DNA of 64,000 nucleotides from Alphaproteobacteria bacterium (GCA_964291285.2 OZ219785.1:160001-224000); one strand, 5' to 3'. Shown: positions 27,459 to 51,577, numbered from the stretch's first letter. Notes: a model not told the origin generated them from the letters alone. Numbers and translations: made by a program.

Positions 27459-27461
27459 GGG

Positions 27462-30746: not shown

Positions 30747-30766
30747 GTAGTGGCGATGACGATGCC

Positions 30767-31186: not shown

Positions 31187-31403
31187 GATGATTTCTCCTT
31201 GCGAGAGGTTGTTTGCGAGTCGTTGCAACTCACCCCGAAAAGCCCTTTCCCGACCTTGCGGCGTCGATGCCAGCGCAGGCCGGGACAGGGTAGGCGGGGA
31301 TCGGGATGCCGGGCGAAGGACGCTGCGGAACTCACCCGGCGGGCGGGGCGAAGGGGGCGCGGACGGAGCGATGCCGCCCGCACCCGGGTCCCCGCCATTG
31401 CCG

Positions 31404-31718: not shown

Positions 31719-31851
31719 GTCGATAATCTCCTGTTGGAGGAAGGGGAGCGGGAGCCGGCCGCCCGGCCACCCGCAGGGATCGCATCGAAAACCCTTTCCC
31801 CACCTTCTTCCGGCGTCGATACCGCCAGGGCCGGGAGAGGGGAAACGGACG

Positions 31852-34371: not shown

Positions 34372-34419
34372 CCCGGAACCCAGAACGCTTTTTCCAACCA
34401 TCTTCAAGGGAAACAAACC

Positions 34420-35262
34420 ATGGCACGACCCGGAAAAACCATTACCGGAACCCCCGGTCATGATTATGCAGGACCTTGGCACTATCCGCAGGATGGCGGA
34501 CCGCGCTACCGCTCAAAGGACTTGGAGGGAACGAACCGCGACGACACGATCCGAGGCTTGGAGGGGCATGATCGAATCGTCGGCAAGCGTGGCGACGACA
34601 CGCTGTACGGCGGCGGCGGCGTGGATCTGATCCTGGGCAACGCTGGCCACGACACGTTGTACGGCGGCAACGGCGACGACCACCTGTTAGGCGATTCCGG
34701 CAACGACACGCTGAAAGGCGGCAACGGCGACGACGACATGTGGGGCGGCACGGGCCGGGACTCTCTTTACGGCGACGCCGGCCACGACGACATGTGGGGC
34801 AACGAGGGCCGGGACTCTCTTTACGGCGGCGACGGCGACGATGACATGGACGGCGGCGGCGACGACGACCTTCTGAAGGGCGGCGACGGAAGAGACACGC
34901 TCTGGGGCGGCAAGGGCAACGACACGCTCGACGGCGGCGACGGCGACGACTTCCTGTGGGGCAACAACGGCAACGATACCTTCATCTTCAGCGGGAACAG
35001 CGGAAAGGACGTCATCCGTGACTACGATGCGGATTCGGACACAATCCAGATCAAGGGAGTCTCCGGGATCGAAGATTCTGGCGACCTCTATCGCTTTTCT
35101 ACCAAGCTAGGCAACGACGATGCTGTAATAATCTACAAAGCAACAGAGGTTAATGAAGACAATGATGGCAAAGACGCCAGGGACAACGCAACGTGGGAAA
35201 TCAAGCTTCTTGATACGCAGTTGTCCGACGTTGATCTGTCCGACTTCGATATCATCGCCTGA
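34420..35262 (+). CDS. RTX-type calcium-binding repeat protein (paralogue)
   Basis: Tandem GGxGxDxLx repeats; C-terminal SDF as in the preceding gene. Confidence 0.9.
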   Translation: MARPGKTITGTPGHDYAGPWHYPQDGGPRYRSKDLEGTNRDDTIRGLEGHDRIVGKRGDDTLYGGGGVDLILGNAGHDTLYGGNGDDHLLGDSGNDTLKGGNGDDDMWGGTGRDSLYGDAGHDDMWGNEGRDSLYGGDGDDDMDGGGDDDLLKGGDGRDTLWGGKGNDTLDGGDGDDFLWGNNGNDTFIFSGNSGKDVIRDYDADSDTIQIKGVSGIEDSGDLYRFSTKLGNDDAVIIYKATEVNEDNDGKDARDNATWEIKLLDTQLSDVDLSDFDIIA

Positions 35263-35456
35263 CGGTTAAAACTTGCCGCCCCGGCGTTCGGGGCGCGTAT
35301 CTGCTTGCATAAGCGGCGCGGGGCCGTCGCCGGGCCGCGGCGAACGCTCGCAAGCTCGCTACACGCCGACCCCGGCGAGACCTTATCGCGCCTGAATGGA
35401 TACGGCAGAATCGAGCGCCCAACGCGCTACGCGCGGCGCTTGCCGAAACTGCCGGT

Positions 35457-35533
35457 GGTTCCCCCGCCCACGCGGGGATAGCCCCCGCCGTGCATCTGCG
35501 AATCATGACATTCGGTCTTGGTGTCTCCCGCAC
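35457..35533 (+). CRISPR. Solitary type I-E-like CRISPR repeat, possibly a mini-array with a degenerate second repeat
   Basis: GGTTCCCCCGCCCACGCGGGGATAGCCCC (35457-35485) with CCCCGC/GCGGGG stem; about 34 nt later GGTGTCTCCCGCAC; no cas genes in the window. Confidence 0.55.
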
Positions 35534-35884
35534 GAACGGCCGGCCTGCATCGCCCGGGTCACGCCGCAACGCATTCCTTCTCCGTCTCCGGGGCCTCGTC
35601 GCCATATGCCGGCCTCCGGAACGGTCCCGCGCGCTGTCTCTGTCCATGGAATCTGCTCTCATATGGTACCAGCAGGGCATGTTTTATACCACCGGCCACA
35701 GATAAGAACCGATTAGCCTCTCTCGGCGGAGATTACCTCTTGCAGTAGGAGGCCTCGGCTCAGGGGGCGAGCTGCGGAGGGAGGCTCTGCTATAGGTTCC
35801 AATCAACGACCGTTGGTATTACCTACATACCCATAGAATCACGATGGACTGTAATACCAGCGGCGCTGATTGCTGACTCATGAC

Positions 35885-37580
35885 CCTAAATCCGGCAGTT
35901 GAGTATGGCTTGGCCTTGCCGAATCCCTTGTAGTCTTCGGGTATGAGCGGCTTTTCAGGGGCCGAAGAGGCTCACCCTGTGGGTGATTATCCTGGCGCTG
36001 TGCGGGATGTCGCCCGAGCGTTCGTGAAGGTGGACACCTTCGGCGGCGCGGTTCATGTGGAATGGGACCCTGATGCGGCGGTGACGCCGCTGGGGCATCT
36101 GGCGTTTTTCGCGGAATAGCTGAAGGTGAGCGGTCGCTTTGACGCTTTGGTTGCGGACTGCCCGCTGCGGTACACGAGCCCGAACGCGCCGTCGAAGCGG
36201 GATGTCCTGGGGACGGTTCTTCTGTCGGTTCTGGCGGGGCAGTCTCGCTATGCGCACATCACGTCGCTGCGCGGCGACGGGGTGAACCCTGCGCTGCTGG
36301 GTATGGACAAGGTTGCGAGCGAGGATTCGGTGCGGCGCGGTCTGGAGCGGATCGGTGCGGATGTCGGCACATCGTGGCTTCAGGGCCATCTGGACGAGGT
36401 GGTCCGTCCGCTGCTGAGGGAGCCGTGGGTTCTGGACTGCGACACGACGATCAAGGCGCTTTACGGTCGTCAGGAGGGAGCGGTTGTGAGCTACAACCCG
36501 AAGAAGCCGGGCCGCCCCTCGCATGCCTGCCATGCGTTCCTGATGGCGGGCACGCGGCTTGTTCCGGATGTCGAGGTGGCGCCGGGCAACCATCACCATT
36601 CGAGGCGCGCGGCGCCGTCCTTGTGGGCGTTGCTCGACCGTCTTGGGCGGGATCGCTGGCCGCGTCTGGTGCGGGGCGACAAGGACTGGGGCAGCGAGGC
36701 CAACATGGCTTCGTGCGAGGCTGCGGGTCCGGACTATCTGTTCAAGCTGCGCCTGACGAAGGGGGCGCGCCTGCTTGCCGAGCGGCTGATGGCGCGGGAC
36801 GGCCGGGAGGATGCGGGCCAGGGCTGGTCGGGGATCGGGGCCGATCTGCGTCTGCAGGGCTGGAGCCGGACGCGCCGGGTTGTGGTGCTGCGCCGGCGGC
36901 TTCCTGCGACGCTGGCGCTGACGCGTGGCGACAAGGCCCGGGGCGAGCTGTTCCGGACCGGGGCGCAGCCCGGCACCGGGGTGTGGGAGTTCGCGGTGCT
37001 GGCGACCTCGCTGGACCTGGAGATACGCTCGCTGGCCCAGCTCTACCGCGACCGGGCGGACGCGGAGAACGGCTTCGACGAGTTGAAGAACCAGTGGGGC
37101 TGGGGCGGCTTCACCACGCGCGACCTGACGCGCTGCCGGCACATGGCCCGGCTGGTCGCGCTCATCTACAACTGGTGGAGCCTGTTCGTGCGCCTCGCCG
37201 ACCCCGACCATCACCGCGAGGCGATCACCAGCCGGCCGCTGCTCCTGCACGGGGTTGCCCGCCAGACCCACCACGCCGGCCAGACCCGGCTGACGGTGAC
37301 CTCCCATCACGGGCGTCGCAAGACGGTGATGGCGGCGCTGCGCCGGATCGCCGGCTTCTTCCGGTCGCTGACGCAAACTGCGGAGCAGTTGAGCGCCGGG
37401 GATCGCTGGCGCCGCATCCTCGCCGAGGCGCTCAGGAAATACCTCCATAGCCGCGAACCGGGGCGTCAACCCTGGCTGCCGCCACCCAGGGCCGCGACCA
37501 CGTGCTGAAATCCACGCCCAAATCCGACCGTTCACACTACCCCGAGACAGCGATCAAGCCCGTCAACTGCCGGATTTAGG
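35885..37580 (+). mobile_element. IS1380-like insertion sequence, 1696 bp
   Basis: Perfect 18-bp TIR CCTAAATCCGGCAGTTGA; no clear target duplication. Confidence 0.88.
35943..37508 (+). pseudogene. IS1380-like transposase with an in-frame TAG at 36117-36119
   Basis: VDTFGGAVHVEWDPDAAVTPLG...FFAE*LK; LDCDTTIK, RGDKDWG, YRDRADAENGFDELKNQWG. Confidence 0.85.
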
Positions 37581-37651
37581 ATCAACTGAAAAACCGCAAC
37601 CGGCCGAAAAATGTCAGCGAATAGGCGCGCTCTGTAACCGTCGCTAACACT

Positions 37652-38427
37652 GGGAGGATGCAGGCCAGGGCTGGTCGGGGATCGGGGCCGATCTGCGTCT
37701 GCAGGGCTGGAGCCGGACGCGCCGGGTTGTGGTGCTGCGCCGGCGGCTTCGCGGGCCTCTGGCGCTGACGCGCCGCGATGACGGCCAGGGCGATCTGTTC
37801 TGGGTCGATGGGCAGCCTGACGCCAAGCTGTGGGAGTTTGCGATCCTCGCCACCTCGCTGGACCTGGAGGTGCGCTCGCTGGCCCAGCTCTACCGCGACC
37901 GGGCGGACGCGGAGAACGGCTTCGACGAGTTGAAGAACCAGTGGGGCTGGGGCGGCTTCACCACGCGCGACCTGACGCGCTGCCGGCACATGGCCCGGCT
38001 GGTCGCGCTCATCTACAACTGGTGGAGCCTGTTCGTGCGCCTCGCCGACCCCGACCATCACCGCGAGGCGATCACCAGCCGGCCGCTGCTCCTGCACGGG
38101 GTTGCCCGCCAGACCCACCACGCCGGCCAGACCCGGCTGACGGTGACCTCCCATCACGGGCGTCGCAAGACGGTGATGGCGGCGCTGCGCCGGATCGCCG
38201 GCTTCTTCCGGTCGCTGACGCAAACTGCGGAGCAGTTGAGCACCGGGGACCGCTGGCGCCGGATCCTCGCCGAGGCGCTCAGGAAATACCTCCATGGCCG
38301 CGAACCGGGGCGTCAACCCTGGCTGCCGCCACCCAGGACCGCGCCCACAGGCTGAAATCCACGCCCAAATCCCACCGTTCACACTACCCCGAGACAGCGA
38401 TCAAGCCCGTCAAATGCCGGATTTAGG
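37652..38427 (+). mobile_element. 5'-truncated second IS1380-like copy
   Basis: Near-identical to about 36805-37580, including the right end (TCAAATGCCGGATTTAGG). Confidence 0.9.
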
Positions 38428-39210
38428 ATAAATCGCGGTCGTCCCCTGCTTCCGGTCCGTGGACTCTTTCGCGATTCCGGGGGAATCGACCAAGAACACC
38501 TTGTCCTTATCCTTCCACCGGTTGCACCATTGCTTTGCGCGCCACTGCAATTCGCAATTGCAGTTGACCATGAAGAATGTTCGAGGCGATACGTACCGCC
38601 AACGAACCGCACAGGTTCTGCTACCGAGCCCTTCCTCAAGCCGTCGTTGCCAGTGGCATACCTCCTCGGCATGGCCTCCTTTACGTCGGCTGTTGTGATG
38701 GTAGAGGATTACGGGCCTCCCTCCTTCTGATAACGCCGCTATTTCGCATTCGGGAATTCCCTTTCCGTGCCTTCTGCGACCGGGTCGAAACGACTCCTGC
38801 TCAATGAGGCCGTTGTCGGGATCGGCAAAGACCAAATCGCAATCTTGCAAATCCCTCCTGGTTTTACGAAACCACTTCTTCCTCCATGTCCCTTGTTCGT
38901 GCTGCTTGCATCCGTGGAAATCCAATTTCCCATCCGAAAAGACGGCATCCGCGAGAAGATCGGAGCTTTCAACTGCCCGGACGCTGCGATTTCCAGATTT
39001 TACGAGCCTGTAGAGCCTGTCGAATGTCTCCCTATCGCAATCTCGCCATTTCTTCGCGTTGCATAGATAACCTGTGTGTTTTCCGTCTTTCTTCTCTTCT
39101 TCGTCGGGGAAAAGATACCAGGCCACGCCCAGCTTCGATCCGTAGGAAAGCGCGCGAAGCAGACTGTATTTTGCGTAGTCGCCGATGTCTCCCGTATATC
39201 TGTCCTGCAT
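38410..39210 (-). CDS. Conserved hypothetical protein, possibly a Rossmann/methyltransferase-like fold; C-terminus runs into the IS end
   Basis: MQDRYTGDIGDYAKYSLLR, VFADPDNGL, VILYHH. Confidence 0.7.
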   Translation of the reverse strand: MQDRYTGDIGDYAKYSLLRALSYGSKLGVAWYLFPDEEEKKDGKHTGYLCNAKKWRDCDRETFDRLYRLVKSGNRSVRAVESSDLLADAVFSDGKLDFHGCKQHEQGTWRKKWFRKTRRDLQDCDLVFADPDNGLIEQESFRPGRRRHGKGIPECEIAALSEGGRPVILYHHNSRRKGGHAEEVCHWQRRLEEGLGSRTCAVRWRYVSPRTFFMVNCNCELQWRAKQWCNRWKDKDKVFLVDSPGIAKESTDRKQGTTAIYPKSGI

Positions 39211-39524
39211 TCGCGGCTTCCACCCCTCACTCCAGTCCCATCAGGCTGCGGGCGAAGTCGCGGGGGGCGAGGCGCGAGGCGTATTCTACACCGTGTTCGA
39301 GACGCTGAAGTCAAGTCTGGATACACCCGCCGCTGCGATGGCCCGAAACCTCTAACCCGGCGCGCGGCGTCATGCAATGCAGAAATTTGCGCTGCGGTGC
39401 GGCTGTGGTGCTTTTTCGGCAGCAGGAGATGGGGGTTCGCGTCCGGTCGGTGTTGTGCTGTGGCGTGTTGAGGCGAGGGCGGCGGTTGATTTTCGAGCGC
39501 GAGCGGAACCGCACAGCGGCATTG

Positions 39525-40715
39525 TCAGGAATCGGTCGCGGTTGCCCGGCCGTCACCGGCGCTGTCCGGTTCGCCCGTCATGGTCCGCGCCATCGCCTTG
39601 CCCACCCGCTCGGCCGCAGCTTCGATGTCGCGGTCGGCGAGATGGGCGTAGCGCAGCGTCATGCGCACATCGGAATGGCCGAGCAGGCGGGAGACGACCG
39701 GGACCGGCACGCCGTTCATGACGGCATGGCTGGCCATGGTATGGCGCAGGTCATGAAGGCGCACATCCCCGATGCCGGCTTCGCGTCTGACGCGGTACCA
39801 GAGCGGCAGGTCGGGGCTGCGCGGGCGGGCGGGGTCGCGCGGCGAGGGAAACACGAACGCGCTGCCCGTGCGCGGCTGCCGGTCGAGGATGCGCCGCGCC
39901 CGGCTGCCGAGCGGGACCGTCCTCGGCCCCGTCTTGCTGTCCGAGAGGGCCAGCATGTCCTCGCGAACTTCCGACCATCGCAGGCCCGTGATCTCGCCCC
40001 TGCGGCAACCGGTGAACAGCAGCAGCCGGACGATGTCGGCCTGCTGCCTGTCGCGGCTTCGGGTCTGCGCGTCCAGAACACTGTGCAGGCGTGCGAGTTC
40101 CTCGCGGGACAGGAACCGCATGAGCGCCGGGCGGCGGTTCCTTCTTGTGCCCTTGGCCGGATTGACTTCGATGTGGCCGCAGGCGGCGGCGAAGGTCATG
40201 ATCTGCTGCAGGATGTCGAGGGCGCGGTTGGCGCCGCCGGGCGCGGTCCGGCTGTAGCGGTCGAACCACTGCCGGACATGGGCCGGGGAAATGCGGTCGA
40301 GCGGCTTCGAGCCGAATGCCGGAAGCAATTGTCGCCGGAGTATCCCGGACGCGGTTTGCTGGCCCGACGGCTTGCAGCGGTTGAAATGGGCCTCCTTCCA
40401 CGGGCCGGCGACGAAATCCCGGAACAGCGGGACCGCGCCGGGCGGTTTGGCAGTCTCCTCCGGCTGCGGGGCCGCCTGGCGTTCAAGAGCCTCCCGGCGG
40501 GCTTCGGCGGCGCTCTTCACGCCGACCGGGCCGAGCGAGACGCGCCTGGTGCGCCCGCCGCTGTCGAGCAGCAGCACCCAGCTGCGCCCGCCGGCGGGCC
40601 GCACCCGGACGCCGAGGCCGGCGATGCGCGTGTCCCGGACCGTATATTCCCGCTCGCGGGGGCGGAGACGGGCGACGGCGGCGTCGGTCAGCTTCATCCG
40701 TTCCCGGCCCGCCAT
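39525..40715 (-). CDS. Tyrosine recombinase IntB, copy 2 (intact)
   Basis: Arm-binding N-terminus (LTDAAV...GLGVRVRP-x-G); TGCRRGEI, SKTG, HDLRH, LLGH, TLRY. Confidence 0.93.
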   Translation of the reverse strand: MAGRERMKLTDAAVARLRPREREYTVRDTRIAGLGVRVRPAGGRSWVLLLDSGGRTRRVSLGPVGVKSAAEARREALERQAAPQPEETAKPPGAVPLFRDFVAGPWKEAHFNRCKPSGQQTASGILRRQLLPAFGSKPLDRISPAHVRQWFDRYSRTAPGGANRALDILQQIMTFAAACGHIEVNPAKGTRRNRRPALMRFLSREELARLHSVLDAQTRSRDRQQADIVRLLLFTGCRRGEITGLRWSEVREDMLALSDSKTGPRTVPLGSRARRILDRQPRTGSAFVFPSPRDPARPRSPDLPLWYRVRREAGIGDVRLHDLRHTMASHAVMNGVPVPVVSRLLGHSDVRMTLRYAHLADRDIEAAAERVGKAMARTMTGEPDSAGDGRATATDS

Positions 40716-41839
40716 CAGTCTGCCTCCAGCACGGCGCCGACCGTCTCGACAGCGTCCTGCACCATGGCGTCGGCGACATGGGTATATTTCAGCGTGGTTT
40801 CCGGCCTGCGGTGGCCCAGCAACCGGCCGATGGCGAGCACCGTCACGCCCTGCCGGAGGGCAAGGCTCGCATGCGTATGGCGCAAATCGTGAAGGCGGGC
40901 GTCCTCCAGGTCTGCCTCGGCGCGGACCCTGCGCCAGAAGTGGTCCAGCCAGCTTCCGCTCCGGGGCCGGTCGCTATCCGGGGCCGGGAACACATGGCGG
41001 CCTTCCCGCTCAAGGCCGTCGAGAACGGCCCGGGCCGGCTCCGACAGCCAGACTGTCCTCGGCCCCGTCTTGGAGTCGCGAAGAAACAGGCGGCCTTCCC
41101 GGTAGTCGGACCATTGCAGGGTGAGGATCTCGCCCTTGCGGCAGCCGGTCAGCAGCAGCAGGCGGATGACGGCGACATGCTGCGGCCAGCGGGCCTCATG
41201 CGCCTTGAGCCGCGCGGACAGGCGGCGGATTTCCTCGTCCGGGAGGAACCGCTCGCGGCCCTTGCGGCGGTAGCGGCGGATGCCCCGGCAGGGGTTGGAC
41301 CCTTCCGGGCGCAGGCCCATGGCCTCCGCCTCCCTCATGATGACGGACAGCACCGGCATCGACCGGTCCGCCGCCACCGGCGTCGCGCGCAGGCGGGCGA
41401 ACCAGTTCCTTACCTCCTGCCGGTCGATGGCGGCAACCGGACGCCCGGCGAAATGCGGCAGAAGCCGGTTGCGCAGATAGCTGCGGTTGACAGCGAGCGT
41501 TCCGGCCTTCCAGAGCCTTGCATGGCGCTCGAACACGGTTTCGGCGACGGCTTCGAAGAGCGTCTCGTCCGGCGTGAGCGGCGCCTCCCCGCCGCGCCTG
41601 ATCGCGGCAAGCATGTCCGCAGCCGCAGACCGCGCGTCCGTGACGCTCATCGACCCGGCGTCGCCGACGATCTTCCAGATACGCACGCCGCGATGCTGGC
41701 AGTGGATGAAGAACTGCTTGCGGCCCGAGGGCGACACACGGACGCCGAACCCCCTGAGCCTGCCGTCGCGGACCTCGCGGACGGACCTGCGGGGCTTGAG
41801 CGCCTTCACGCGCGCCTCGGTAAGGGTAGTCTTCGCCAT
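40715..41839 (-). CDS. Tyrosine recombinase IntA, copy 2 (intact)
   Basis: LTEARVKAL...GFGVRVSPSG; TGCRKGEI, SKTG, HDLRH, LLGH, TTLKY; TGATG overlap with intB. Confidence 0.93.
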   Translation of the reverse strand: MAKTTLTEARVKALKPRRSVREVRDGRLRGFGVRVSPSGRKQFFIHCQHRGVRIWKIVGDAGSMSVTDARSAAADMLAAIRRGGEAPLTPDETLFEAVAETVFERHARLWKAGTLAVNRSYLRNRLLPHFAGRPVAAIDRQEVRNWFARLRATPVAADRSMPVLSVIMREAEAMGLRPEGSNPCRGIRRYRRKGRERFLPDEEIRRLSARLKAHEARWPQHVAVIRLLLLTGCRKGEILTLQWSDYREGRLFLRDSKTGPRTVWLSEPARAVLDGLEREGRHVFPAPDSDRPRSGSWLDHFWRRVRAEADLEDARLHDLRHTHASLALRQGVTVLAIGRLLGHRRPETTLKYTHVADAMVQDAVETVGAVLEAD

Positions 41840-41955
41840 TGCGTTTCTCCCGGCTCCGGTTGCAGCCGGGGAACGGGCCCTTGCGACCCGCTTGCCCGAC
41901 CGCTGCATTTCGGGAGAAAAAACGACGCTATGTCAGATAGTTAGCACCGGCAGGT

Positions 41956-42479
41956 GCGGCCGTGGTGTCGTGCGCCTGGCCAGGGCTGAGGTCATAGCGG
42001 ACCGGCAGGCCGCTCACGTCCGACACGGCGTGGATCTTCGTGGTCAGTCCGCCACGGGAACGGCCCATGCAACGATCCGGACCCCCTTTTTTGATCCCGC
42101 CGCATGCTGGTGAACCCGGACGCTCGAACTGTCGATCATCTGCACATTGCCGTCGTGAGCCTCCACCACCGCATCCATCAACTGATCCCAGATGCCCTTC
42201 TTGCGCCAGCGGTTGAACCGGTTGTAGCAGGTCGTACAAGGCCCGTAGTGCTCCGGCAGGTCTCGCCACGGCGCCCCCGCGCGAAGCACCCACAGAATGC
42301 CGTTCAACACCCGCCGGTCGTCAACCCGCGGCACCCCACGGGTCTTGTTCGGCAGCAACGGCTTGATAACCCGCCATTCGAAGTCCGTCAGATCGTACCG
42401 GCCCATGTCCTCGCTCCCTGAAGTTGGGAGCTTGAATCACAGCTTCGCTGAAGAAGAAACCCCTTATGGGTACACGACC
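41956..42479 (-). mobile_element. 5' half of the split IS5-family element (orfA 42044-42406 and start of orfB)
   Basis: MGRYDLTDFEW...WRDLPEHYG; GRSRGGLTTKIHA...LSPGQAHDTTAA; end matches the 28069 end at 14/17 nt; TA flank at 42480-42481. Confidence 0.9.
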
Positions 42480-42514
42480 TAATCTCCTGCGCTACGATAA
42501 AGGAACCGTCCACA

Positions 42515-43294
42515 ATGCCTAACGTGACGACAATTCCAGAAAATATAGAATATGTTCTTCTACACGGCTACGGTGCCAATGCGAGTTCCTGGGATTTAGT
42601 TGCCGATAGTATGAATGCAATTCACTCCACTCATGCTATTGAATTGGTTGGATTTGGTCGGAACGTTCCCCCGAAACACTTCGACTACTCTCTGGAGTCT
42701 CAAGCACAGCATCTGGCGCAATTATTCAGAAACAGGAGTAATTCCTACAGGCTAGTAGCTCACTCCCTCGGTGCAGCTATTGCTGTTATTGCGTTGCTGG
42801 ACTTCAAACTAGATCCGAAGGAGTTAATTTTGATTAGTCCGCTGTTAGTTCCCCAAGAGGCCCCGTTTTTTATTAGCATCCATTCTGTGCCCTTGCTGTC
42901 GAATATTGTCACGAACGCACTCCCACCATCTATCTTGGTCGACTCCGTACTAAAAAGAATCTATTTTGATCCCAAAAAGATAAATGCTGATATTCGGTCT
43001 GCCTATATCGGTGATTTCTCAAACACCTATCATCGACGCGCCCTGCGCGAGACAGCACGCACTCTCTATAGATTTGATGCTGAACCATACGTTAGCCGCT
43101 TCAACAATATTGAGACTCCGGTAACGATTATTTGGTCTCGAGAAGACCCACTTCTCCCATTCCGAAATGCCGCTACATTGCAATCCAAAATGCCCAATTC
43201 AAGATTGTTCCCGATAGACAATTGTGGCCATGCTCCACACGAGGAATGTCCTGGCAAATTTGTTGAGGCATTCTTGTCCTCAAGGGAAAAGTAA
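42515..43294 (+). CDS. Alpha/beta-fold hydrolase (low GC)
   Basis: LLHGYG, AHSLG nucleophile elbow, EDP, CGHAPHEE. Confidence 0.9.
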   Translation: MPNVTTIPENIEYVLLHGYGANASSWDLVADSMNAIHSTHAIELVGFGRNVPPKHFDYSLESQAQHLAQLFRNRSNSYRLVAHSLGAAIAVIALLDFKLDPKELILISPLLVPQEAPFFISIHSVPLLSNIVTNALPPSILVDSVLKRIYFDPKKINADIRSAYIGDFSNTYHRRALRETARTLYRFDAEPYVSRFNNIETPVTIIWSREDPLLPFRNAATLQSKMPNSRLFPIDNCGHAPHEECPGKFVEAFLSSREK

Positions 43295-43298
43295 ATCA

Positions 43299-44144
43299 AT
43301 GCGGTCTATATTGATCAGCCCCCTTAGAATAGTGTGGCCAATCATTGTATCGTTTGGAGCTATTGCACTGTCTGTTGCTGGTTACGGTGGGCTTCTGCCA
43401 TTTGAGTTGCTGCCATCGGGATCGGAGGTGTCAATAAGTATTTCAATCATATCGGTCCCGGTGGTGATCTCAGAAAATCAAATTTATTTCGGACTAATGT
43501 TAGTGGGATTTATGTTATTGTTGAGTTTACCCTTTCGGAATTAGGCAAAATTGTTTCCATCTCATCTTGATTTGATGCTGGCATTCGATGAAGCAGGTAT
43601 AACAAGGCGGTTGACTGGACAGGGCCTTAATAAGAAGTTGGTATTCCCAATTCATTCAAATTGGACAGAAAGACGGAAACAGTTTCTTGATCAGATTGAC
43701 GATATAATCGCAGGCCAGCTCTCCGGAATTGTGCTATTTGGGACAGAGCCGGATAAAGTATCAGGTACAGGGAGAACCACTTTTTTTGTGGAAAAGGTGG
43801 GAGCGCTTCAAAAATATAGGATTTCATCATCAGACGGATATGTACTACTGAGAAAAGAAGCTGATATCGGAGAAATAGAAACCAAATTTCAGCTAATCAA
43901 TACCATTGATAGTGTATTTTCAATAAACCTTTCACAGATATATTTTTCTTGGAAATTTCATATACATCCTGTTTTTGAGCAATTCTATAGAGTTGATCCA
44001 AAAACGACAAGAAGCCTCTTCAACCTATCTACATCTACAGTTGTTCGTTTCTTTCCAGTAATCGATATTGGCGACACCATTTACTTGGTACAGGATGGAG
44101 AGAAATTTGTGCCAATCTGTTATGGTGTGTATTCCACAAGGTAG
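43299..44144 (+). pseudogene. Low-GC membrane-anchored hypothetical protein with an in-frame TAG at 43542-43544
   Basis: ORFs 43224-43544 and 43551-44144 share one frame (PFRN*AKLFP); hydrophobic N-terminal segments. Confidence 0.65.
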
Positions 44145-44339
44145 TCGCTTACCACGCAGTGCGTGGCCCGGAACGTTGAAGGGTGGCGATAGTTGTCAAC
44201 GAAATCGCGCTTGGCAAGTCGTTATGGCGCTGTGCGGCGCGAACCGGTGGAGAGCGCGGGATCGGAGGGGACGAGGGCGTAGCCGGGCGCGGCTGACGGG
44301 GGCCGGATCGGCCCTGTATGTCGCGCGGTCTGCCTGCTG

Positions 44340-45515
44340 TTATCGCCTCCTTGCCATGTCTGCCGGCTCTCCCGTCATCGCTCGCGCCATGGCCGCTCCG
44401 ACCCGCTCCGCAGCCGCCTGGATGTCGCTGTCTGCCAGATGAGCATAGCGCAGGGTCATCTGCACGCTGGAGTGCCCGAGCAGGCGGGAGACGACCGGCA
44501 CCGGTACCCCGTTCATCACGGCATGGCTCGCCATCGTGTGACGAAGGTCATGGAGGCGCACATCTTCAATGCAGGCTTCCTTGCGAACCCGATCCCAGAG
44601 CGGCAGGTGCGGACGGCGCGGGCGGGCCGGGTTGCGCGGCGAGGGAAACACGAATGCGCTCCTGCCGCGCGGCTGCCGGTCGAGGATGCGCCGCGCTCGG
44701 CTGCCGAGCGGAACCGTTCTCGGCCCGGTCTTGGAATCCGTGAGGGCCAGCCCGTCCTCGCGGACTTCCGACCAGCGCAGTCCCAGGATCTCGCCCCTGC
44801 GGCAGCCGGTCAGCAACAGCAGCCGGACGATGTCGGCCTGCTGCCGCGCGCCCTGCCGGGTCTGCGCGTCCAGGGCGGCATGGAGGCGTGCGAGTTCCTC
44901 CCGGGACAGGAACCGGGTGAGCTTCGGCCGCCGGTTTAACGCGATGCCGTCCGTGGAATTACGTTCGATATGGCCGCAGGCGACGGCGAAATTGAGAATC
45001 TGGCGCAGACGGGCCAGGCATTGATTGGCGTTGCCCGGCGCCGTGCGGCTGTATCGCTCGAACCAGCGCCGGATGGCGGCTTCCCCGATGCGGTCGAGCG
45101 GCTTCGATCCGAAGGCCGGCAGAAGCTGGCCCGCCAGTTGGGACCTGGCGACCCTCTGCGTCGAGGGCTTGTAGCCGTCGAAATGCGCCTCCTTCCACGG
45201 GCCCGCGAGGAAATCCCGCAACAGCGGGACCGGCCCCGTGCGCACGGTCTTTCCCACGGGCTCCGGGCTCGCCATGCGGGCATGGCATTCCCTGCGAACC
45301 TCTTCCAGGCCCTTCACCCCGACCGGGCCGAGCGAAACGCGCTTCGTGCGCCCGCCCATGTCCTGCAGCAGCACCCAGCTCTTTCCTCCGGAGGGCCGGA
45401 CGCGGACCCCGAGGCCGGCCGCGCGCGTGTCCCAAACCGTGTATTCCCGCTTGCGGGGGCGGAGCCGGGCGGCGGCGGCGTCGGTCAGTTTTTTCCGTTC
45501 CCTGCCCGCCATCAT
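44340..45515 (-). CDS. Tyrosine recombinase IntB, copy 3 (intact)
   Basis: Paralogue of 39525-40715; full R-K-H-R-H-Y set. Confidence 0.93.
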   Translation of the reverse strand: MMAGRERKKLTDAAAARLRPRKREYTVWDTRAAGLGVRVRPSGGKSWVLLQDMGGRTKRVSLGPVGVKGLEEVRRECHARMASPEPVGKTVRTGPVPLLRDFLAGPWKEAHFDGYKPSTQRVARSQLAGQLLPAFGSKPLDRIGEAAIRRWFERYSRTAPGNANQCLARLRQILNFAVACGHIERNSTDGIALNRRPKLTRFLSREELARLHAALDAQTRQGARQQADIVRLLLLTGCRRGEILGLRWSEVREDGLALTDSKTGPRTVPLGSRARRILDRQPRGRSAFVFPSPRNPARPRRPHLPLWDRVRKEACIEDVRLHDLRHTMASHAVMNGVPVPVVSRLLGHSSVQMTLRYAHLADSDIQAAAERVGAAMARAMTGEPADMARRR

Positions 45516-46636
45516 TTTCCCTCCAGCGCAGCGCCGATCGTCTCGGCGGCCTCATGCACCATGGAGTCGGCAAGGTGGATGTATTTCAGCGTCGTCTCCG
45601 GCTTGCGGTGGCCGAGCAGGCGGCCGATGGCGAGCACGGTTTCGCCTTGCCGGAGCGCCAGGCTGGCTACGGTATGGCGCAGGTCGTGAAGGTGAACGTC
45701 CTCCAGTTCCGCCTCGGCGCGGACCCCGGCCCAGAAATATTCCAGCCAGGTCGCGCTCCGCGGCCGGCTGGCCCCCGATACGGGGAATATCCACCGGTTC
45801 TTGCGCGCAAGGCCGTCGAGGACGGCGCGGGCCGGTTCGGAGAGCCACACGGTCCTGGGTCCCGTCTTGCTATCGCGGAGAAACAGGTGGCCTTCCCGGT
45901 AGTCCCGCCATTGCAGGGTGAGGATCTCGCTCTTGCGGCAGCCTGTGAGCAGCAGCAGGCGGATGACGGCGACCTGCTGCGGCCAGCGGGTCTCGTGCGC
46001 CCGGAGCCTCGCGGACAGGCGGCGGATCTCCTCGTCGGAGAGGAACCGCTCGCGGCCCTTGCGGCGGTAGCGCTTTATCCCCGGGCAGGGGTTGGAGCCC
46101 TCGGGGCGCATGCCCATCCGTTCCGCCTCCCTCATGATGACGGAGAGGATGGGCATGGACCTGTCGGCCGCCACCGGCGTCGCGCGCAGGCGGGCAAACC
46201 AGTTCCTCACCTCCTGCCGGTCGATGTCGGCAATCGGACGCCCCGCGAAATGCGGCAGGATGCGGCTGCGAAGATAGCTGCGGTTCACGCGGAGCGTTCC
46301 GGGCTTCCAGACTCCCTCGTGACGCCGGAACGCGGTCTTGGCGACGGCTTCGAAGAGTGTCTCGTCGGGCAAAGGCGGCGCCTCCTCGCCTCGCCTGATG
46401 GCGTTGAGCATGTCGCCCGCAACGGACCGCGCCTCGGCGACGCCCAGGCTCCCGGCGTCGCCGACGATCTTCCAGATGCGCTCGCCGCGATGCTGACAGT
46501 GGATGAAGAACTGCTTGCGCCCCGAAGGCGACATACGGACGCCGAAGCCCCTGAGCTCGCCGTCGCGGACCTCGCGGACGGACTTGCGGGGTTTGAGGGC
46601 CTTCACGCGCGCCTCGGTAAGGGTGGTTCCCGGCAT
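45512..46636 (-). CDS. Tyrosine recombinase IntA, copy 3 (intact)
   Basis: Paralogue of 40715-41839; ATGA overlap with intB. Confidence 0.93.
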   Translation of the reverse strand: MPGTTLTEARVKALKPRKSVREVRDGELRGFGVRMSPSGRKQFFIHCQHRGERIWKIVGDAGSLGVAEARSVAGDMLNAIRRGEEAPPLPDETLFEAVAKTAFRRHEGVWKPGTLRVNRSYLRSRILPHFAGRPIADIDRQEVRNWFARLRATPVAADRSMPILSVIMREAERMGMRPEGSNPCPGIKRYRRKGRERFLSDEEIRRLSARLRAHETRWPQQVAVIRLLLLTGCRKSEILTLQWRDYREGHLFLRDSKTGPRTVWLSEPARAVLDGLARKNRWIFPVSGASRPRSATWLEYFWAGVRAEAELEDVHLHDLRHTVASLALRQGETVLAIGRLLGHRKPETTLKYIHLADSMVHEAAETIGAALEGK

Positions 46637-46747
46637 AGAATTTCTCCCGGCTCCGGTTGCAGCCAGGGAACTGATATGCTTCCCTAGCTGCAAATTTTCG
46701 GGAGAAAAAACGACGCTATATCAGATAGTTAGCACCCAAGGTGCGCC

Positions 46748-46942
46748 GCCGCGGTGTTCGTCGAAGCCGGCGCTCGCCGGGTCCCTGTCGGCGCTGTAAC
46801 TCACGGGCGCGAAATCGGGAAAGAAACCGACCCCGAGCACGCGCCCCTTTTCCGTGCAGGCGGCAGGGGCCTCCGCCGCTGCGAACAGCGCCGCGAGGCC
46901 GAACGCACCCGCAAGAAGCCGCCTGCCGGATCGCGCCGTCAT
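46748..46942 (-). pseudogene. 5' fragment of a periplasmic substrate-binding protein gene cut by the island boundary
   Basis: Signal peptide then LGVGFFPDFAPVSYS...FDEHRG, running into the integrase-module end. Confidence 0.65.
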
Positions 46943-47103
46943 CGCAGAACCCGCCTTTCCCGCCGCTCCCCGTCTCCGGCGGCGCAACCGGTTTCTATTC
47001 CATCCGCGCCCGGCCTGCCACGGCCCTTTGCCGCCGCGGAGACCGTGAGCCTTTCTTTCGGGCTTTGATTTCCTTCGCTCCCCCGGATATGCCGACGCTC
47101 GTC

Positions 47104-48402
47104 ATGCTTCGCTTTTCCCTGCGAACCCTCGGCCTGTCGCTCGCACTCGCCTCGGCGGTCGCGGCGCCGGCGGGATCGATTGCCGAACGTAACCGGAATG
47201 AGGCGCAGTGGCTGCGTCTCGCCGTCGAACGGCTGTGCCCGCAGCCCACACTGTCCGGCCTCGACGCGCAGACCGCCCTGCCCGGCAGCTGGCTGCTGGA
47301 CGAGACCCGCCGGCCCGATGACGGGGTCCCCCGGCGAATCACCATCCGCCTGCTGCTGCCGGGGGCGGACGAACTCACCGTCGAGCGGCGGCAATTCGGC
47401 GGCAGGCTGCGCCAGTTCCTGGTTTCCTACGCTGCGCATGACGGGGAAGGCGCGCAGCCATCCGTTCAGGCCATCGCCGACGGAGGATGCGTAATCCGGT
47501 CCGGCCGGGCGATCCGGACGGAGGACGGAGGCTGGCGGTATCTCGACCAGTTCGAAGGCGATCTCCGGACGCTGAAATGGGCCGAGACCCTGCAGGCCCC
47601 GTGGCCCGAGGGAACGGACCCCGGTGGCGTCCGGGTCGCCCTCGTGGACTCGGGACTGGCCTACGACCTGCCGCTGTTCCGCGACCGGCTGGCCCGCGAC
47701 AGCGAGGGCATGCCGCTCGGCTACGACTTTTGGGACCTCGATCCCTGGCCCTATGACGGCGACACGTCGCGCGGTCCCTTCCTTCCGATCCGGCACGGCA
47801 CTGCGGTCGCATCCGTGCTCGCGCGCGAGGCGCCGGCAGCCGCGCTCATCCCGTTCCGCTATCCGCGCCCCGACATGACCCGCATGGCCGCGCTGGTCCG
47901 CCGCGCCGCCGATGCAGGCGCCCGCATCCTCGCCATGCCGCTCGGCAGCCGCAATCCGGGGGACTGGCGCGGGTTCGAGCGCGCGCTCGGCAGGCACGAC
48001 ATGCTGGCCGTCGTCTCGGCGGGGAATAACGGCCGCGATATCGACAGGGGGAGCCCGGTCTATCCGGCCGCGTCCACGCTTGAAAACATCCTCGTTGTCA
48101 CTTCGGCCGACGGCTTCGGGCGCCTCGCCCGGGGGTCGAACTGGGGCCGGGAGAGCGTGGATGTCATGCTGCCGGCGGAGAATGTCGGGATCGTCGATTT
48201 TCGCGGCGCTTCGGGGACCGCTTCCGGCTCCAGCTACGCGGTGCCGCGCCTTGCCGCCCTTGCGGCGAGGCTGCTGGCGCGGGAGCCGGGACTGACTGCG
48301 GCCCGGCTCAAGGCCCGCATCCTGGCCCGCGCGACGCCGTCTCCCTATGAGCGGGAGGGCGTCGTGGCCGCCGGCTGGATTCCCGACCCGCTTTCGGACT
48401 GA
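47104..48402 (+). CDS. S8 (subtilisin-like) serine peptidase
   Basis: VALVDSG, HGTAVA, SAGN, SGSSYAVP; signal peptide. Confidence 0.85.
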   Translation: MLRFSLRTLGLSLALASAVAAPAGSIAERNRNEAQWLRLAVERLCPQPTLSGLDAQTALPGSWLLDETRRPDDGVPRRITIRLLLPGADELTVERRQFGGRLRQFLVSYAAHDGEGAQPSVQAIADGGCVIRSGRAIRTEDGGWRYLDQFEGDLRTLKWAETLQAPWPEGTDPGGVRVALVDSGLAYDLPLFRDRLARDSEGMPLGYDFWDLDPWPYDGDTSRGPFLPIRHGTAVASVLAREAPAAALIPFRYPRPDMTRMAALVRRAADAGARILAMPLGSRNPGDWRGFERALGRHDMLAVVSAGNNGRDIDRGSPVYPAASTLENILVVTSADGFGRLARGSNWGRESVDVMLPAENVGIVDFRGASGTASGSSYAVPRLAALAARLLAREPGLTAARLKARILARATPSPYEREGVVAAGWIPDPLSD

Positions 48403-48413: not shown

Positions 48414-50462
48414 CTACCGGCGCTTCGGCGCGGGCGGGGCCGCGTCGATGAAGCGCCGGGCGGCCTCGGCCTGTCGGGGGTCGGCCTTCCTGAGCGCCCG
48501 GTAAGCTTCCTCCGCCAGCTCCGGGGCCTTGCCCCAGACGCCGGACTGTATGGCGAACCGCAGGGCCTGCGGGTCCTCGGGCGCCATGCCCATCAACCGG
48601 CGCGCATGGCCGGTCATCTCCTCGAAGCGCCCGCCGAGCTGCAGCGACACCAGCAGCGAAATCCTCGCATTGATCGAGTTCGGAACCTGCCGGGCCGCCT
48701 GGCCGTGGAGCGCAATGGCGCGGTCGAAATCGCCAGACCGCGCAAGCAGCCGGCCGGCTTCGAGCAACTGGCCGTGGTTCCTTGCTTTAGCGCAGGTCCC
48801 GGCCAGCCCGTCGCGGTCCGACTCGCTCGCCTCGCGGCCCCGGAATGCGTCGATTCCGGCCGCACAGGCCGAGAAGGCCGCTCCCAGCCAGCGCGTGACC
48901 TCGGCAGCCCTGGGGTCCTCACGCAAGGACAGGAGCGCGCGAACGCCCTCCAGCGGCATCGCCTCGAACCGCCCGTCGCCGCCGCCGACGGCAATCCCCG
49001 CCAATTCGCCGGCTGCGTCCACCAGTGCGCCGCCGCTGACGCCGGGCTGCATGCGCGCGCGAATGTGCAGCCGCCCAAGTTCCGCGCCCTCCCCAGGCCC
49101 CGCAATCAGCCCGCCGGGGTCGAAGACGCGCACCTCCTTCCGGGCGATATCGACGCCGACGGCGTAGAAGTCGCCATCGCCCGGGACTTCGCCCTCGAGG
49201 TCGGGGATGAACCCGTCCGAGGGCAGCCCCGGGACCTCCAGAAGCGCCAGATCGCCGGCATAGGCGGAGGGAACCACCCTCGCCTCCCTCGGCCCGCCGG
49301 GCGTGTGAACGACCGCATCCGGCCGGTCCGCCACGACATGGCGGTTGGTGACGAGCAGCGCGGGTCCGATCCGCGTTGCGCTTGCGGCCGGATCGAAGCC
49401 GGAGACCGGGAAGACCGCCTGCCGGACGAGGCAGACCGGCGCCGGATGGGGACAGTCCGCCAGCGCCTCCGGCTTATCCGGCGCCTCTTCTGCCTCCGGC
49501 GCGGCATCGAAGGAAAGCGGGACGACCCTCTGCCGGCCGTCGCGCAGCAATACGATGTCCACCGGCGCGCCGGGATCGCGTATGACCGCGAATGCCGCAA
49601 TCGCATCGCGCGGCGTGCGCACCCGGCGCTGGCCGATCTTCAGGATCGCGTCTCCGGGCTGGATGCCGGCCGCGTCTGCCGGACCGCCTTCGCTAACCGC
49701 GCCGACCATCGGCGCAGCGACGCTCGCCGGCCGGTCGTGCCCTGCCGCCGCTAGCCTCCAGCCGGGCGCGGGATATTCGACCCTGCCATCGGAGATCAGC
49801 GCCTCGACGACGCGCATGAGCAGGTCGGTCGAAACGGCGAAATTGACGCCGATATTCGTGTCGCCGTCGGAGGAGGCGAAGATCGCTGACATCATGCCCA
49901 CCAGGCGGCCCTGCCGGTCCACCAGCGCGCCGCCGGAACTGCCCGGATTGGCGGCCGCGTCGGTCTGGACGAAGTCCTCCACGGCGTTGAAGCCCGCGTC
50001 CGTCACATGCAGCGCAGAGACCACGCCGCATGTCACGGAGAGGCCGAGCCCGTAAGCATTGGCGATGGCGCATGCCGGCTCCGCCAGCTGCGGGGCGGGC
50101 GCGACCCCGATGGGCCGGAGCCTGGCATCGACGCGCAAGAGGGCGATGTCGCTCGCGGCGTCCTTCGCAACCAGTCTGGCCGGCAGAATGCGGCCGTCGG
50201 ACAGGCGCACATCGATCCGCCGGGCTGGCTCGACCGTATGCCACGCCGTCGCGACGAGGCCGGGCTTCAGGACCACGCCGCTGCCTTCGGGAGCGATGCC
50301 GGGGCGTGTGCCCGCGCCGCCCTGGGGCCGCCCCGGCCAGACCGGCAGCACCGAAACGACCGACTCCAGCGTCTCGGCAGGCAGCGCCTGCGCAGGGGGC
50401 GCCTGGACACCGGCCAGCAGGAGCAGCAGCGCGGTCGCCGGAAGGTATTTTCGACACGGCAT
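48414..50462 (-). CDS. HtrA-like protease with PDZ, a second trypsin-like domain and C-terminal TPR-like helices
   Basis: TAWH, DIALL, QTDAAANPGSSGGAL, PDZ; second TNRHVV, DLALL, QPGVSGGAL. Confidence 0.85.
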   Translation of the reverse strand: MPCRKYLPATALLLLLAGVQAPPAQALPAETLESVVSVLPVWPGRPQGGAGTRPGIAPEGSGVVLKPGLVATAWHTVEPARRIDVRLSDGRILPARLVAKDAASDIALLRVDARLRPIGVAPAPQLAEPACAIANAYGLGLSVTCGVVSALHVTDAGFNAVEDFVQTDAAANPGSSGGALVDRQGRLVGMMSAIFASSDGDTNIGVNFAVSTDLLMRVVEALISDGRVEYPAPGWRLAAAGHDRPASVAAPMVGAVSEGGPADAAGIQPGDAILKIGQRRVRTPRDAIAAFAVIRDPGAPVDIVLLRDGRQRVVPLSFDAAPEAEEAPDKPEALADCPHPAPVCLVRQAVFPVSGFDPAASATRIGPALLVTNRHVVADRPDAVVHTPGGPREARVVPSAYAGDLALLEVPGLPSDGFIPDLEGEVPGDGDFYAVGVDIARKEVRVFDPGGLIAGPGEGAELGRLHIRARMQPGVSGGALVDAAGELAGIAVGGGDGRFEAMPLEGVRALLSLREDPRAAEVTRWLGAAFSACAAGIDAFRGREASESDRDGLAGTCAKARNHGQLLEAGRLLARSGDFDRAIALHGQAARQVPNSINARISLLVSLQLGGRFEEMTGHARRLMGMAPEDPQALRFAIQSGVWGKAPELAEEAYRALRKADPRQAEAARRFIDAAPPAPKRR

Positions 50463-51577
50463 CAGCGGTCTCCGCCGGCCTGTCCGCCCTCGAAACCGCG
50501 CCGCCACTCGTCGAAGCGGCCTTGCTCTATGGCGCTGCGGATTTCGGCCATCAGGGCCTGGTAGAAGGCGGTGTTGTGCCAGCTTAGCAGGGTCGCGCCC
50601 AGCATTTCGCGCGACTTGACGAGATGATGCAGATAGGCGCGGCTGAACTCCCGGCTCGCCGGGCAATCGACGCTTGGGTCCAGCGGCGCGGGGTCCTCGG
50701 CATGGCGGGCGTTGCGCAGGTTGAGCGGCCCCTCCCGGGTCCAGGCCTGCGCGGTGCGTCCGGACCGCGTCGGCAGCACGCAGTCGAACAGGTCTATGCC
50801 GCGCGCCACGGCGCCCACGATGTCGGCCGGCTTGCCCACACCCATCAGGTAGCGGGGCCGGTCCGCCGGCAGCGCATCGGGGACCGTATCGAGGACGGAG
50901 AACATCGCCGCCTGCCCTTCCCCGACCGCGAGGCCGCCGACCGCATAGCCGTCGAAGCCCATCCGCACCAGCGTCTCGGCGGACTCCGCGCGCAGATCGT
51001 CGTGCACGCCGCCCTGCACGATGCCGAACAGGCCGTAGCCGGGCCGGTCCCGGAAGGCGGCTCGGCAGCGCTCCGCCCAGCGCATCGACCGGCGCATGGA
51101 CTCGGCCGCGCCGTCCTTGTCGATGGGCCAGGGCGTGCATTCGTCGAGCGCCATGGTCACATCGGCGTCGAGCAGGTATTGCGCCTCGACCGCGCGCTCG
51201 GGCGTGAGTTCGAGGCGCGCGCCGTCAATATGGCTCCGGAAGCGCACCCCGCCCTCCCCGACTTTGGCGAGGTCGCCGAGCGACATGGCCTGGTAGCCGC
51301 CGGAATCGGTCAGGATCGGCCCCGGCCAGCGCATGAAGGCATGCAGCCCGCCGAGCCGAGCCACCCGTTCCGCGCCGGGCCGCAGCACGAGATGGTAGGT
51401 GTTGGCGAGCACCATCTGCGCGCCGGTTTCCGCCACCATGTCGGGCGTGAGCGCCTTCACGGTCGCCGCCGTGCCGACCGGCATGAACGCCGGCGTCTCG
51501 ACCGGGCCGTGCGCCGTCTGGAGCCGCCCGCGCCGGGCGCGCCCGTCAGTGCCCGTCAGCGCGAAGACCAGCGCCAT
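50462..51577 (-). CDS. tgt: tRNA-guanine transglycosylase
   Basis: [44 protein letters not shown]. Confidence 0.96.

Follow-up and report, generated by a model that had tools for sequence, protein, structure and literature searches.

A 64,000-nucleotide (nt) stretch of an Alphaproteobacteria genome (the window; G000:C1:160001-224000, with C1 to C5 denoting contigs of this genome) carries three copies of a tandem integrase module, of which copies 2 and 3 retain their ends next to the integrase genes. We are confident that copies 2 and 3 represent the right ends, on the integrase side, of genomic islands that form one integrative, site-selective family, insert at N5-GGTGT (five variable bases followed by GGTGT) and are driven by two tyrosine integrases, IntA and IntB. 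The islands are probably mobilizable. Boundaries, direct repeats, exact empty sites, the GGTGT rule and the conserved pairing of intA with intB could all be observed directly; we read the elements as a low-specificity, site-selective family that would act like a sequence-selective transposon, as an earlier sequence-only reading of this DNA had proposed.

Island ends in the window and across the genome

The islands share one layout, running from a left attachment (att) core through a left-end module that encodes NikA-like ribbon-helix-helix proteins, cargo that varies, intB and intA, and a conserved right arm (TGTCAGATAGT, TAGCACC, 3-4 nt, GGTGCG) to a right att core. The features in the window that define the ends, the integrases and the split target of copy 2 are as follows (strand is given where one applies).

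41908-41958: right-end block of copy 2, GGGAGAAAAAACG..TGTCAGATAGTTAGCACC, with the dyad GCACC (41944-41948)/GGTGC (41953-41957) and terminal GGTGCG
41959-41968: right att core, direct repeat GCCGTGGTGT (attR, copy 2), from empty-site comparison
46696-46747: right-end block of copy 3, with the dyad GCACC (46732-46736)/GGTGC (46740-46744), then GCC
46748-46757: right att core GCCGCGGTGT (attR, copy 3); an identical 10-mer precedes an island left end at C4:596583-596592
40715-41839, minus: intA of copy 2, P4/SXT-type tyrosine integrase, 374 amino acids (Pfam Arm-DNA-bind_3, Phage_int_M, Phage_integrase)
39525-40715, minus: intB of copy 2, paralogous tyrosine integrase, 396 amino acids, its start overlapping the end of intA (Pfam and alignment)
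45512-46636, minus: intA of copy 3, its product 81% identical to IntA of copy 2 (Pfam)
44340-45515, minus: intB of copy 3 (Pfam and alignment)
28385-41968, minus: complete island of copy 2, 13,584 bp with both 10-bp direct repeats included; near-identical sister on C2
28385-28394: left att core, direct repeat GCCGTGGTGT (attL, copy 2); the island left end AACACGAAGCAACC... comes next
28067-28394, minus: distal piece of an IS5-family insertion sequence, 3' part of the DDE transposase gene orfB (Pfam DDE_Tnp_1 / DDE_Tnp_1_2 in the open reading frame [ORF] 28066-28617)
41956-42481, minus: proximal piece of the same insertion sequence, orfA with DUF4096 and the 5' part of orfB (Pfam)

The window contains exactly two occurrences of the 41-nt sequence TTTCGGGAGAAAAAACGACGCTATRTCAGATAGTTAGCACC (41908-41948 and 46696-46736), and 0/100 shuffles yielded a match. 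In copy 2 it is followed by GGCA, GGTGC, a single G and the core GCCGTGGTGT, and in copy 3 by CAA, GGTGC, GCC and the core GCCGCGGTGT; the two arms of the GCACC/GGTGC dyad are 4 nt apart in copy 2 and 3 nt apart in copy 3, and the gap from GGTGCG to GGTGT is 5 and 7 nt, respectively. The shared end sequence, short variable spacer and dyad that had been described from the sequence are present at both copies, and so is GCCGYGGTGT directly after both right ends (41959-41968 and 46748-46757). This degenerate 10-mer is found three times in the 64-kb window against 0.55 expected, a count reached in 0/100 shuffles, and all three sites are element junctions, the third (28385-28394) being the left junction of copy 2.

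Position alone would also allow the 41-nt block to be only a conserved promoter or leader of intA, with the likeness of the 10-mers due to chance: the block lies upstream of intA, and the 5' leader and ribosome-binding region are likewise conserved. We give this explanation practically no chance, as homology between copies and between targets switches exactly at GGTGCG plus the core, the empty sites described below contradict it, and GCCGYGGTGT occurs in the window only at junctions. Scans of both window right ends for sigma-70-like promoters and for terminators detected nothing. Across 90 distinct right ends, the right-end block is among the best-conserved stretches. Separately, the intA leader (41840-41907; 46637-46695) contains a CCGG-TTGCAG-CCGG-like dyad beside the ribosome-binding site, kept in the same 90 right ends, which may be a regulatory hairpin.

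Copy 2 is complete in itself, a 13.6-kb island lodged inside an insertion sequence. Window 28385-41968 matches C2:447929-434351 with 99.963% identity across 13,584 bp, and the identity between copy 2 and this C2 sister ceases exactly at GCCGTGGTGT, on both sides and at both loci. Copy 2 splits an 842-bp IS5-family insertion sequence, with positions 469-796 at 28067-28394 and positions 784-1309 at 41956-42481; positions 784-796 (13 nt) are present in both pieces. Intact IS5-family copies elsewhere in the genome supply the empty site and read ...CACCGGCG-GCCGTGGTGT-CGTGCG.... The target of the sister is a different, unrelated multi-copy repeat, entered 13 nt inside the repeat end, and unoccupied copies of that repeat read GTCCCGA-GCCGTGGTGT-AAGAGCC. 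Copy 2 does not belong to one large island. The copies had been described as abutting a truncated IS5 orfB and a truncated substrate-binding-protein (SBP) gene; the presence of both genes was confirmed, each of them interrupted instead of truncated, with their remainders at 28067-28394 and on C4.

The SBP gene was split by copy 3, and its 5' part is the last feature needed here.

46748-46942, minus: 5' fragment of the SBP gene, ~65 codons that encode the signal peptide and the first residues of the mature protein, cut at the core (translation; tblastn)

Read on the minus strand (46942-46748), this fragment translates to ...GFDEHRG at the core. An intact 340-residue homologue is present in the related genome G013, where the end motif is without any copy. 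Used against our genome in tblastn, this homologue matched in two places only: C1:206858-206748, inside the window, corresponds to its residues 31-65, and C4:596600-595758 to its residues 60-340. The C4 piece ends ...CATA-GCCGCGGTGT and is followed by a copy-2-type island left end; the gene is split exactly at GCCGCGGTGT, with HRG encoded by both halves. The predicted 3' remainder of the SBP gene was indeed found beside the repeat at an island left end, but on contig C4 rather than to the left of the window, and within the window nothing supports the related proposal that copy 3 marks the right boundary of a whole island, its partner end being on C4. The window contains no match to the typical left end, which places the left end of copy 3 elsewhere. 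Once the insertion sequence and copy 2 are set aside, the sequence left of the copy 3 integrases consists of a hydrolase gene, an ORF of unknown function, a unique stretch of 414 bp and the remains of copy 1. Assembled contigs from three other public runs (one organism label) cross the copy 3 junction (46757) with zero differences. A Pfam SBP_bac_3 search of the genome returned two unrelated matches, neither half of the split gene among them. As for the distribution of the interrupted gene over two contigs, recombination among island or insertion-sequence copies or an assembly join could account for it.

Across the genome, BLAST located 23 right ends, and the left ends comprise 4 of the copy-2 type and 14 of a typical form, GGTGT-AAATCTCGAACG...TTAGGGCACTATCTGACAG. 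Wherever a right end was compared with an empty site, island sequence gives way to target sequence directly after GGTGCG or 1-2 bases later. Homology among main-clade copies is limited to intB-intA and the right end, plus a 0.3-0.8 kb left end of two types. In the typical left end there are two ORFs for NikA-like ribbon-helix-helix proteins, together with an inverted form of the right arm motif ACTATCTGACA. DNA of the end motif is present in 14/16 other genomes of the genus and in 0/24 more distant relatives. Eleven left/right pairs could be proposed:

Pair 1, window, copy 2: GCCGTGGTGT on both sides
Pair 2, C2 sister: GCCGTGGTGT on both sides
Pair 3, C3:145043 / 123444: GCCGTGGTGT on both sides; 21.6 kb, with the site in an insertion sequence as for copy 2
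Pair 4, C1:448756 / 412421: TTCAGGGGTGT on both sides
Pair 5, C2:1406616 / 1395568: GGCGCGGTGT on both sides
Pair 6, C4:508023 / 518088: GGCGCGGCGT / GGCGCGGTGT, one mismatch
Pair 7, C5:390320 / 400415: TCCCGGGTGT / TCTCGGGTGT, one mismatch
Pair 8, C3:1625006 / 1616819: TCTCTGGTGT / TCGCTGGTGT, one mismatch; matched by position and orientation only
Pair 9, C1:1132383 / 1171129: TGGAAGGTGT on both sides
Pair 10, C4:596583 / window 46748: GCCGCGGTGT on both sides; different contigs
Pair 11, C3:1587281 / 1579038: TCAGGGGTGT / TCGGCGGTCT, three mismatches; matched by position and orientation only, and may not be partners

In seven of these pairs the repeat is perfect over 10 bp or more; three pairs have one mismatch and one has three mismatches. 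As in a P4/SXT-type island or an integrative mobilizable element (IME), the direct repeats match a single sequence in the empty site. Two further insertion sequences supply empty sites for TTCAGGGGTGT and GGCGCGGTGT. For pair 9, a 38.7-kb island (C1:1132383-1171129), the flanks are contiguous at 9/11 related-species loci, which carry a single GTGGAAGGTGT or GGTAT / CGTGT variants of it; at the remaining two loci only the right flank was matched, and one of these coincides with an island end on the same flank. The targets include four different repeat families, the SBP gene and other genes, single-copy protein-coding genes among them, and different islands (integrase genes 95% identical, left ends and cargo different) occupy the same site in different copies of an insertion sequence.

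The 10-bp repeat is most likely the shared att core of conservative site-specific recombination rather than a transposase-made duplication, because the recombinases are tyrosine integrases. Its near-constant length (10-11 bp) and its target-derived first five bases are what a target-site duplication left by staggered transposase cuts would also show. We nevertheless consider such a duplication very improbable: no transposase is common to the copies, the DDE genes belonging to nested insertion sequences or to the disrupted target; the repeat always ends in GGTGT; and the single internal mismatch in 3/11 pairs is unexpected for a copied duplication and expected for a heteroduplex overlap. A somewhat larger, still small probability attaches to the islands being fossils that were spread passively by transposition of insertion sequences or by homologous recombination between repeats. 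Many copies do lie inside multi-copy insertion sequences, several integrase genes are truncated or frameshifted, and the genome is rearranged, the SBP gene halves being on two contigs. Passive spread would have to account, however, for 99.96% identical sisters in two unrelated targets, each with a clean repeat and empty sites, for different islands at the same site in different insertion-sequence copies, for the use of single-copy protein-coding genes as targets, and for the presence of GGTGT at most of the distinct junctions described below.

The target and the integrase pair

To define the target, right junctions from this genome were pooled with those of 27 same-genus loci and 52 public metagenome-assembled-genome loci, giving 82 distinct flanks; the titles of the public genomes name Alphaproteobacteria, Defluviicoccus sp. 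or Rhodospirillaceae, and in two cases Chloroflexota and Dehalococcoidia. GGTGT lies 5-8 nt after the terminal GGTGCG in 66/82 distinct right junctions (21 at offset 5, 42 at offset 6, 2 at offset 7 and 1 at offset 8), against a background of 0.00067 per position per strand. In the rest, GGTGT appears with one mismatch in 12 and with at least two mismatches in 4. GGTGT also precedes 16/18 left ends, the other two carrying the variants GGCGT and GCGTGT. The five bases ahead of GGTGT are near random over the whole family. Given that GGTGT stands at the expected offset in 66 of these 82 junctions, the family target is N5-GGTGT, and GCCGYGGTGT is one lineage's version of it. The proposal that a short degenerate target is selected by sequence was borne out in this way, the random flanks that would have spoken against it not being seen; of the proposed target GCCGYGGTGT itself, the GGTGT half is conserved family-wide, while GCCGY is lineage-specific.

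The variable half of the core appears to be shared more often than chance predicts. Eleven junction pairs with unrelated flanks share their N5, against a shuffled mean of 3.8, and 11 was reached in 2/1000 shuffles; about seven of the eleven look independent, as some orthologous sites and repeats of one partner are among those counted. The 99.96% identical sisters have all ten core bases in common in unrelated targets. In three near-identical islands of one sub-lineage, N5 is TCACC, TCGCT and TCTCG, and within pairs 7 and 8 of that sub-lineage the third base of the left core is not that of the right core. GCCGTGGTGT occurs 47 times in the genome, 8 times as an island end and 39 times free.

The only genes common to all copies are intA and then intB, which encode P4/SXT-type tyrosine integrases and overlap or are closely adjacent; no third conserved gene was found next to intA-intB among main-clade copies. 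IntA and IntB share 42-43% identity, and the catalytic columns R, K, HxxR, H and Y do not vary in either. All four window integrases (copies 2 and 3) contain Arm-DNA-bind_3, Phage_int_M and Phage_integrase, which is the P4/SXT (IntSXT, DUF4102) architecture; DUF4102-bearing integrases form the IntSXT / P4 subgroup (PMC8138268).

The genome contains 39 full-length intA-type genes, each directly followed by an intB-type frame, which is shortened in three cases, and in all pairs the two frames overlap or lie close together, with 3 to 74 nt separating the matched parts. Measured against IntA of copy 2, the 39 genes fall into identity classes of 73-100%, ~60%, ~43% and ~36%. Among the divergent tandem-pair classes (~60%, 43% and 36%; for example C1:52380-54556, C2:209006-211325 and C2:637218-639497), several are near-identical multi-copy sets. 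In the public loci, IntB follows IntA in 48/52. In a quick maximum-likelihood tree with SH-aLRT support only, the first three classes separate by gene position, with one group of downstream proteins (33 rows, SH-aLRT 95) and another of upstream proteins, and the fourth class joins pairs from three other genomes of the same taxonomic class in a group of its own in which upstream and downstream members are sisters. The A/B split is old. With at most nine candidates scored per genome, tandem pairs were visible in 3/200 other genomes of that class (G179, G214 and G030). In G179, which belongs to another family of the class, an A-B pair is 54% and 53% identical to IntA and IntB here, and two intA upstream regions, one of an intA beside which no intB was found, are alike up to ...GTGCAGAGGTGT and divergent beyond. 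Because these two regions are alike up to ...GAGGTGT and then diverge, the GGTGT end is older than the genus.

These observations suggest a mechanism for the family. An empty target holds the core of about 10 bp, N5-GGTGT, a single time, and an inserted island has it at both ends. On excision the island would form a circle with a single core, which IntA and IntB would then recombine with a chromosomal GGTGT site whose N5 matches or nearly matches that of the island. The two proteins may form a hetero-tetramer across the arm and core sites, with one protein on each half-site and each cutting one strand, in the manner of XerC/XerD. GGTGT would serve as the target-side core-binding site, and N5 together with part of GGTGT as the strand-exchange overlap, placed at about core positions 3-8. 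Identity in the overlap would be favoured and a single mismatch tolerated, with the resulting heteroduplex resolved by replication to leave unlike left and right cores; drift of the core by one base per hop could bring lineages to different N5-GGTGT sites. Such an overlap would fit both the sharing of N5 and the mismatches between left and right cores.

It may instead be that the elements and their target are as described while one integrase alone carries out integration and the other serves excision, directionality, the resolution of tandem arrays or a second att site, with no heteromer formed. We regard this division of labour as unlikely, though it is the strongest of the alternatives considered. 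Both proteins have the full catalytic set and either could act alone, the sister relationship of upstream and downstream members in the ~36% clade suggests that pairs can arise by separate duplications, and no excisionase-like gene was recognised except the NikA-like ORFs. Set against this, the order A then B with overlapping or close frames is fixed in this genome and in the 48 of 52 public loci, and the A and B groups stay separate down to ~42% identity, a pattern that fits joint function and leaves a heteromer unproven.

Several points weigh against the interpretation of these islands as IntA/IntB-driven elements that insert at N5-GGTGT. Assembled contigs of the public runs contained no att joint or restored empty site, although contigs cannot show absence. 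Excision, a circular form and present activity are presumed, and the putative IntA-IntB heteromer is proposed from conserved synteny and phylogeny. The test of N5 re-use counts related sequences and some orthologous sites, which overstates its significance. The finding of TCACC, TCGCT and TCTCG in near-identical islands means that strict homology matching cannot be the whole rule, and the fact that exact 10-mers are mostly unoccupied means that the 10-mer is insufficient, that insertion is rare, or that insertions elsewhere are selected against. The copy-2-type left end does not have the inverted ACTATCTGACA motif of the typical left end. Finally, the two halves at copy 3 lie on different contigs (C4:596583 versus window 46757), so that a later rearrangement or an assembly join must be assumed.

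Cargo, the copy 1 remnant and neighbouring sequences

Apart from its ends and integrases, copy 2 carries recognizable cargo and a nested insertion sequence, and a third, decayed integrase module lies beside its left end.

29847-30566, plus: NikA-like ribbon-helix-helix protein, cargo or left module of copy 2 (Pfam NikA-like, 27.1 bits, cut-off 27)
30767-31228, minus: single-strand DNA-binding protein, copy 2 cargo (Pfam SSB, E = 4.8e-28)
32233-35262, plus: two RTX calcium-binding repeat proteins, copy 2 cargo (32233-34371 and 34420-35262; Pfam HemolysinCabind; 27-nt repeat family)
35885-37580, plus: nested IS4-type insertion sequence of ~1.7 kb in copy 2 (DDE_Tnp_1_4, DDE_Tnp_1; many genomic copies)
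26305-27652, minus: copy 1 remnant, a frameshifted intB (26305-27461) and only the last ~190 nt of intA (27462-27652), without a surviving right end

The 27-nt repeat arrays at 33784-34149 and 34525-34998 are the RTX nonapeptide repeats of the two adjacent cargo genes. The IS4-type insertion sequence has ~45 genomic matches of at least 300 nt, and its 3' part is partially duplicated at 37648-38436. A gene of the Slam type (surface lipoprotein assembly modifier) at window 23301-24650 has counterparts beside intB at C3:410487, C5:396756, C2:222169, C3:1620477 and C3:1582648; lying just downstream of intB in several islands, it is recurrent cargo of one sub-lineage.

Elsewhere in the window, a ~2.0-kb insertion sequence with a DDE_Tnp_1 transposase (19768-21789) is present in ~50 copies at 99.7-100% identity on all five contigs, and this copy number at such identity points to a very recent expansion. 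A 289-nt inverted repeat, 80% complementary (16321-16609 / 19090-19378), encloses ~2.5 kb with two divergent ORFs and more nested inverted repeats. To the right of copy 3 are a subtilase (Peptidase_S8) gene (46741-48402) and a large gene for a trypsin-like protease with PDZ and TPR domains (48414-51140). The subtilase region is kept in most genomes of the genus, with the exception of the first 300 nt beside the island.

Relation to known elements and meaning of the family

In membership, the closest known elements are the P4/SXT-type islands, whereas in working the closest are Tn554, SE / GInt, ICEPmu1 / ICEMh1 and relaxed-target integrases such as IntDOT. With P4/SXT-type islands, IMEs and integrative and conjugative elements, the family shares integrase domains and catalytic residues, an integrase at one end, short direct repeats, exact empty sites and variable cargo. 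The known P4/SXT-type members described in the literature consulted have one integrase and one fixed place, such as the 3' end of a tRNA gene, prfC or guaA (PMC8138268). In contrast, the elements described here have tandem paralogous integrases and a 5-bp invariant target, and they are present in dozens of copies per genome in insertion sequences and genes; the single integrase and fixed locus of P4/SXT-type elements are replaced by tandem pairs and varied targets.

Tn554 is not known to make a 10-bp repeat, and its hosts are Firmicutes. Site-selective transposition of Tn554 requires two tyrosine recombinases and no DDE enzyme (PMC10214605; PMC3414803); these recombinases belong to a simple group without the arm-binding domain (PMC8138268), and Tn554 has a third gene, tnpC, and a 6-bp footprint (PMC10214605). 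The tnpA-tnpB-tnpC set was not found here, where main-clade copies share only intA-intB, the right end and a short left end with NikA-like ORFs. SE / GInt elements likewise have more than one tyrosine recombinase at one end, few selected targets and travelling short spacers, together with a four-gene operon (intA-tfp-intB-srap or ginABCD) that includes one large recombinase, and imperfect terminal inverted repeats (PMC10214605); SE core genes are reported from Gammaproteobacteria only (PMC10214605). Unlike in SE / GInt, the intA and intB described here adjoin with no gene between them, encode proteins of equal size that both have arm-binding domains, and occur in alphaproteobacterial hosts; the four-gene operon, in which a non-catalytic recombinase-like gene separates the two integrases and a small gene comes fourth, is not present.

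ICEPmu1 / ICEMh1 carry a pair of tyrosine recombinases that are thought to cooperate and have 11-13-bp direct repeats (PMC6861422), but they are large conjugative elements with XerC/XerD-like recombinases and a single tRNA-Leu target. The BIM elements of Cupriavidus combine one tyrosine recombinase with an SMC-domain protein (PMC3414803) and do not correspond to the present modules, in which both genes encode tyrosine integrases. The RIT trio (ritA-B-C) was rejected on the finding of two recombinase genes per module, and a DDE transposon with target-site duplication on the finding that the DDE genes all lie in nested or disrupted insertion sequences. CTnDOT, NBU1 and Tn916-type elements use a tyrosine integrase that needs a short conserved motif beside a variable, heterology-tolerant overlap; they differ in having a single integrase of other subgroups, in their phyla and in the motif. 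In the main text of open-access papers and preprints, we found no description of DUF4102 integrases in tandem that use a GGTGT-type target.

Integrases with the DUF4102 arm-binding domain are a textbook case of strict site specificity. Islands that target GGTGT are unusual because integrases of the P4/SXT type normally use one fixed site. The family presents a DUF4102 system that acts like a transposon, with a 5-bp invariant motif and a lineage-specific 5-bp stretch, and it stands out for the tandem P4-type pair, the small invariant target and the very high copy number. Within one genome, dozens of copies split genes and insertion sequences and bring in cargo that includes RTX proteins and Slam-type lipoprotein export genes. 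The ends also provide a rule for finding boundaries in these Alphaproteobacteria: right, GTCAGATAGTTAGCACC-N3-4-GGTGCG-N5-7-GGTGT; left, GGTGT-AAATC.

For the study of recombination, the islands offer a compact two-protein system with which the relaxation or re-programming of target choice in tyrosine recombinases can be addressed. Tentatively, we suggest that a P4/SXT-type lineage might have turned into an obligate two-subunit recombinase in which protein reads GGTGT and the element's own overlap, N5, is matched by homology with about one mismatch tolerated, such that each imperfect hop would retarget the element. If true, this self-retargeting would explain the presence of ~40 integrase pairs in a 6-Mb genome, and the family would represent a naturally reprogrammable tyrosine integrase with a 10-bp site.

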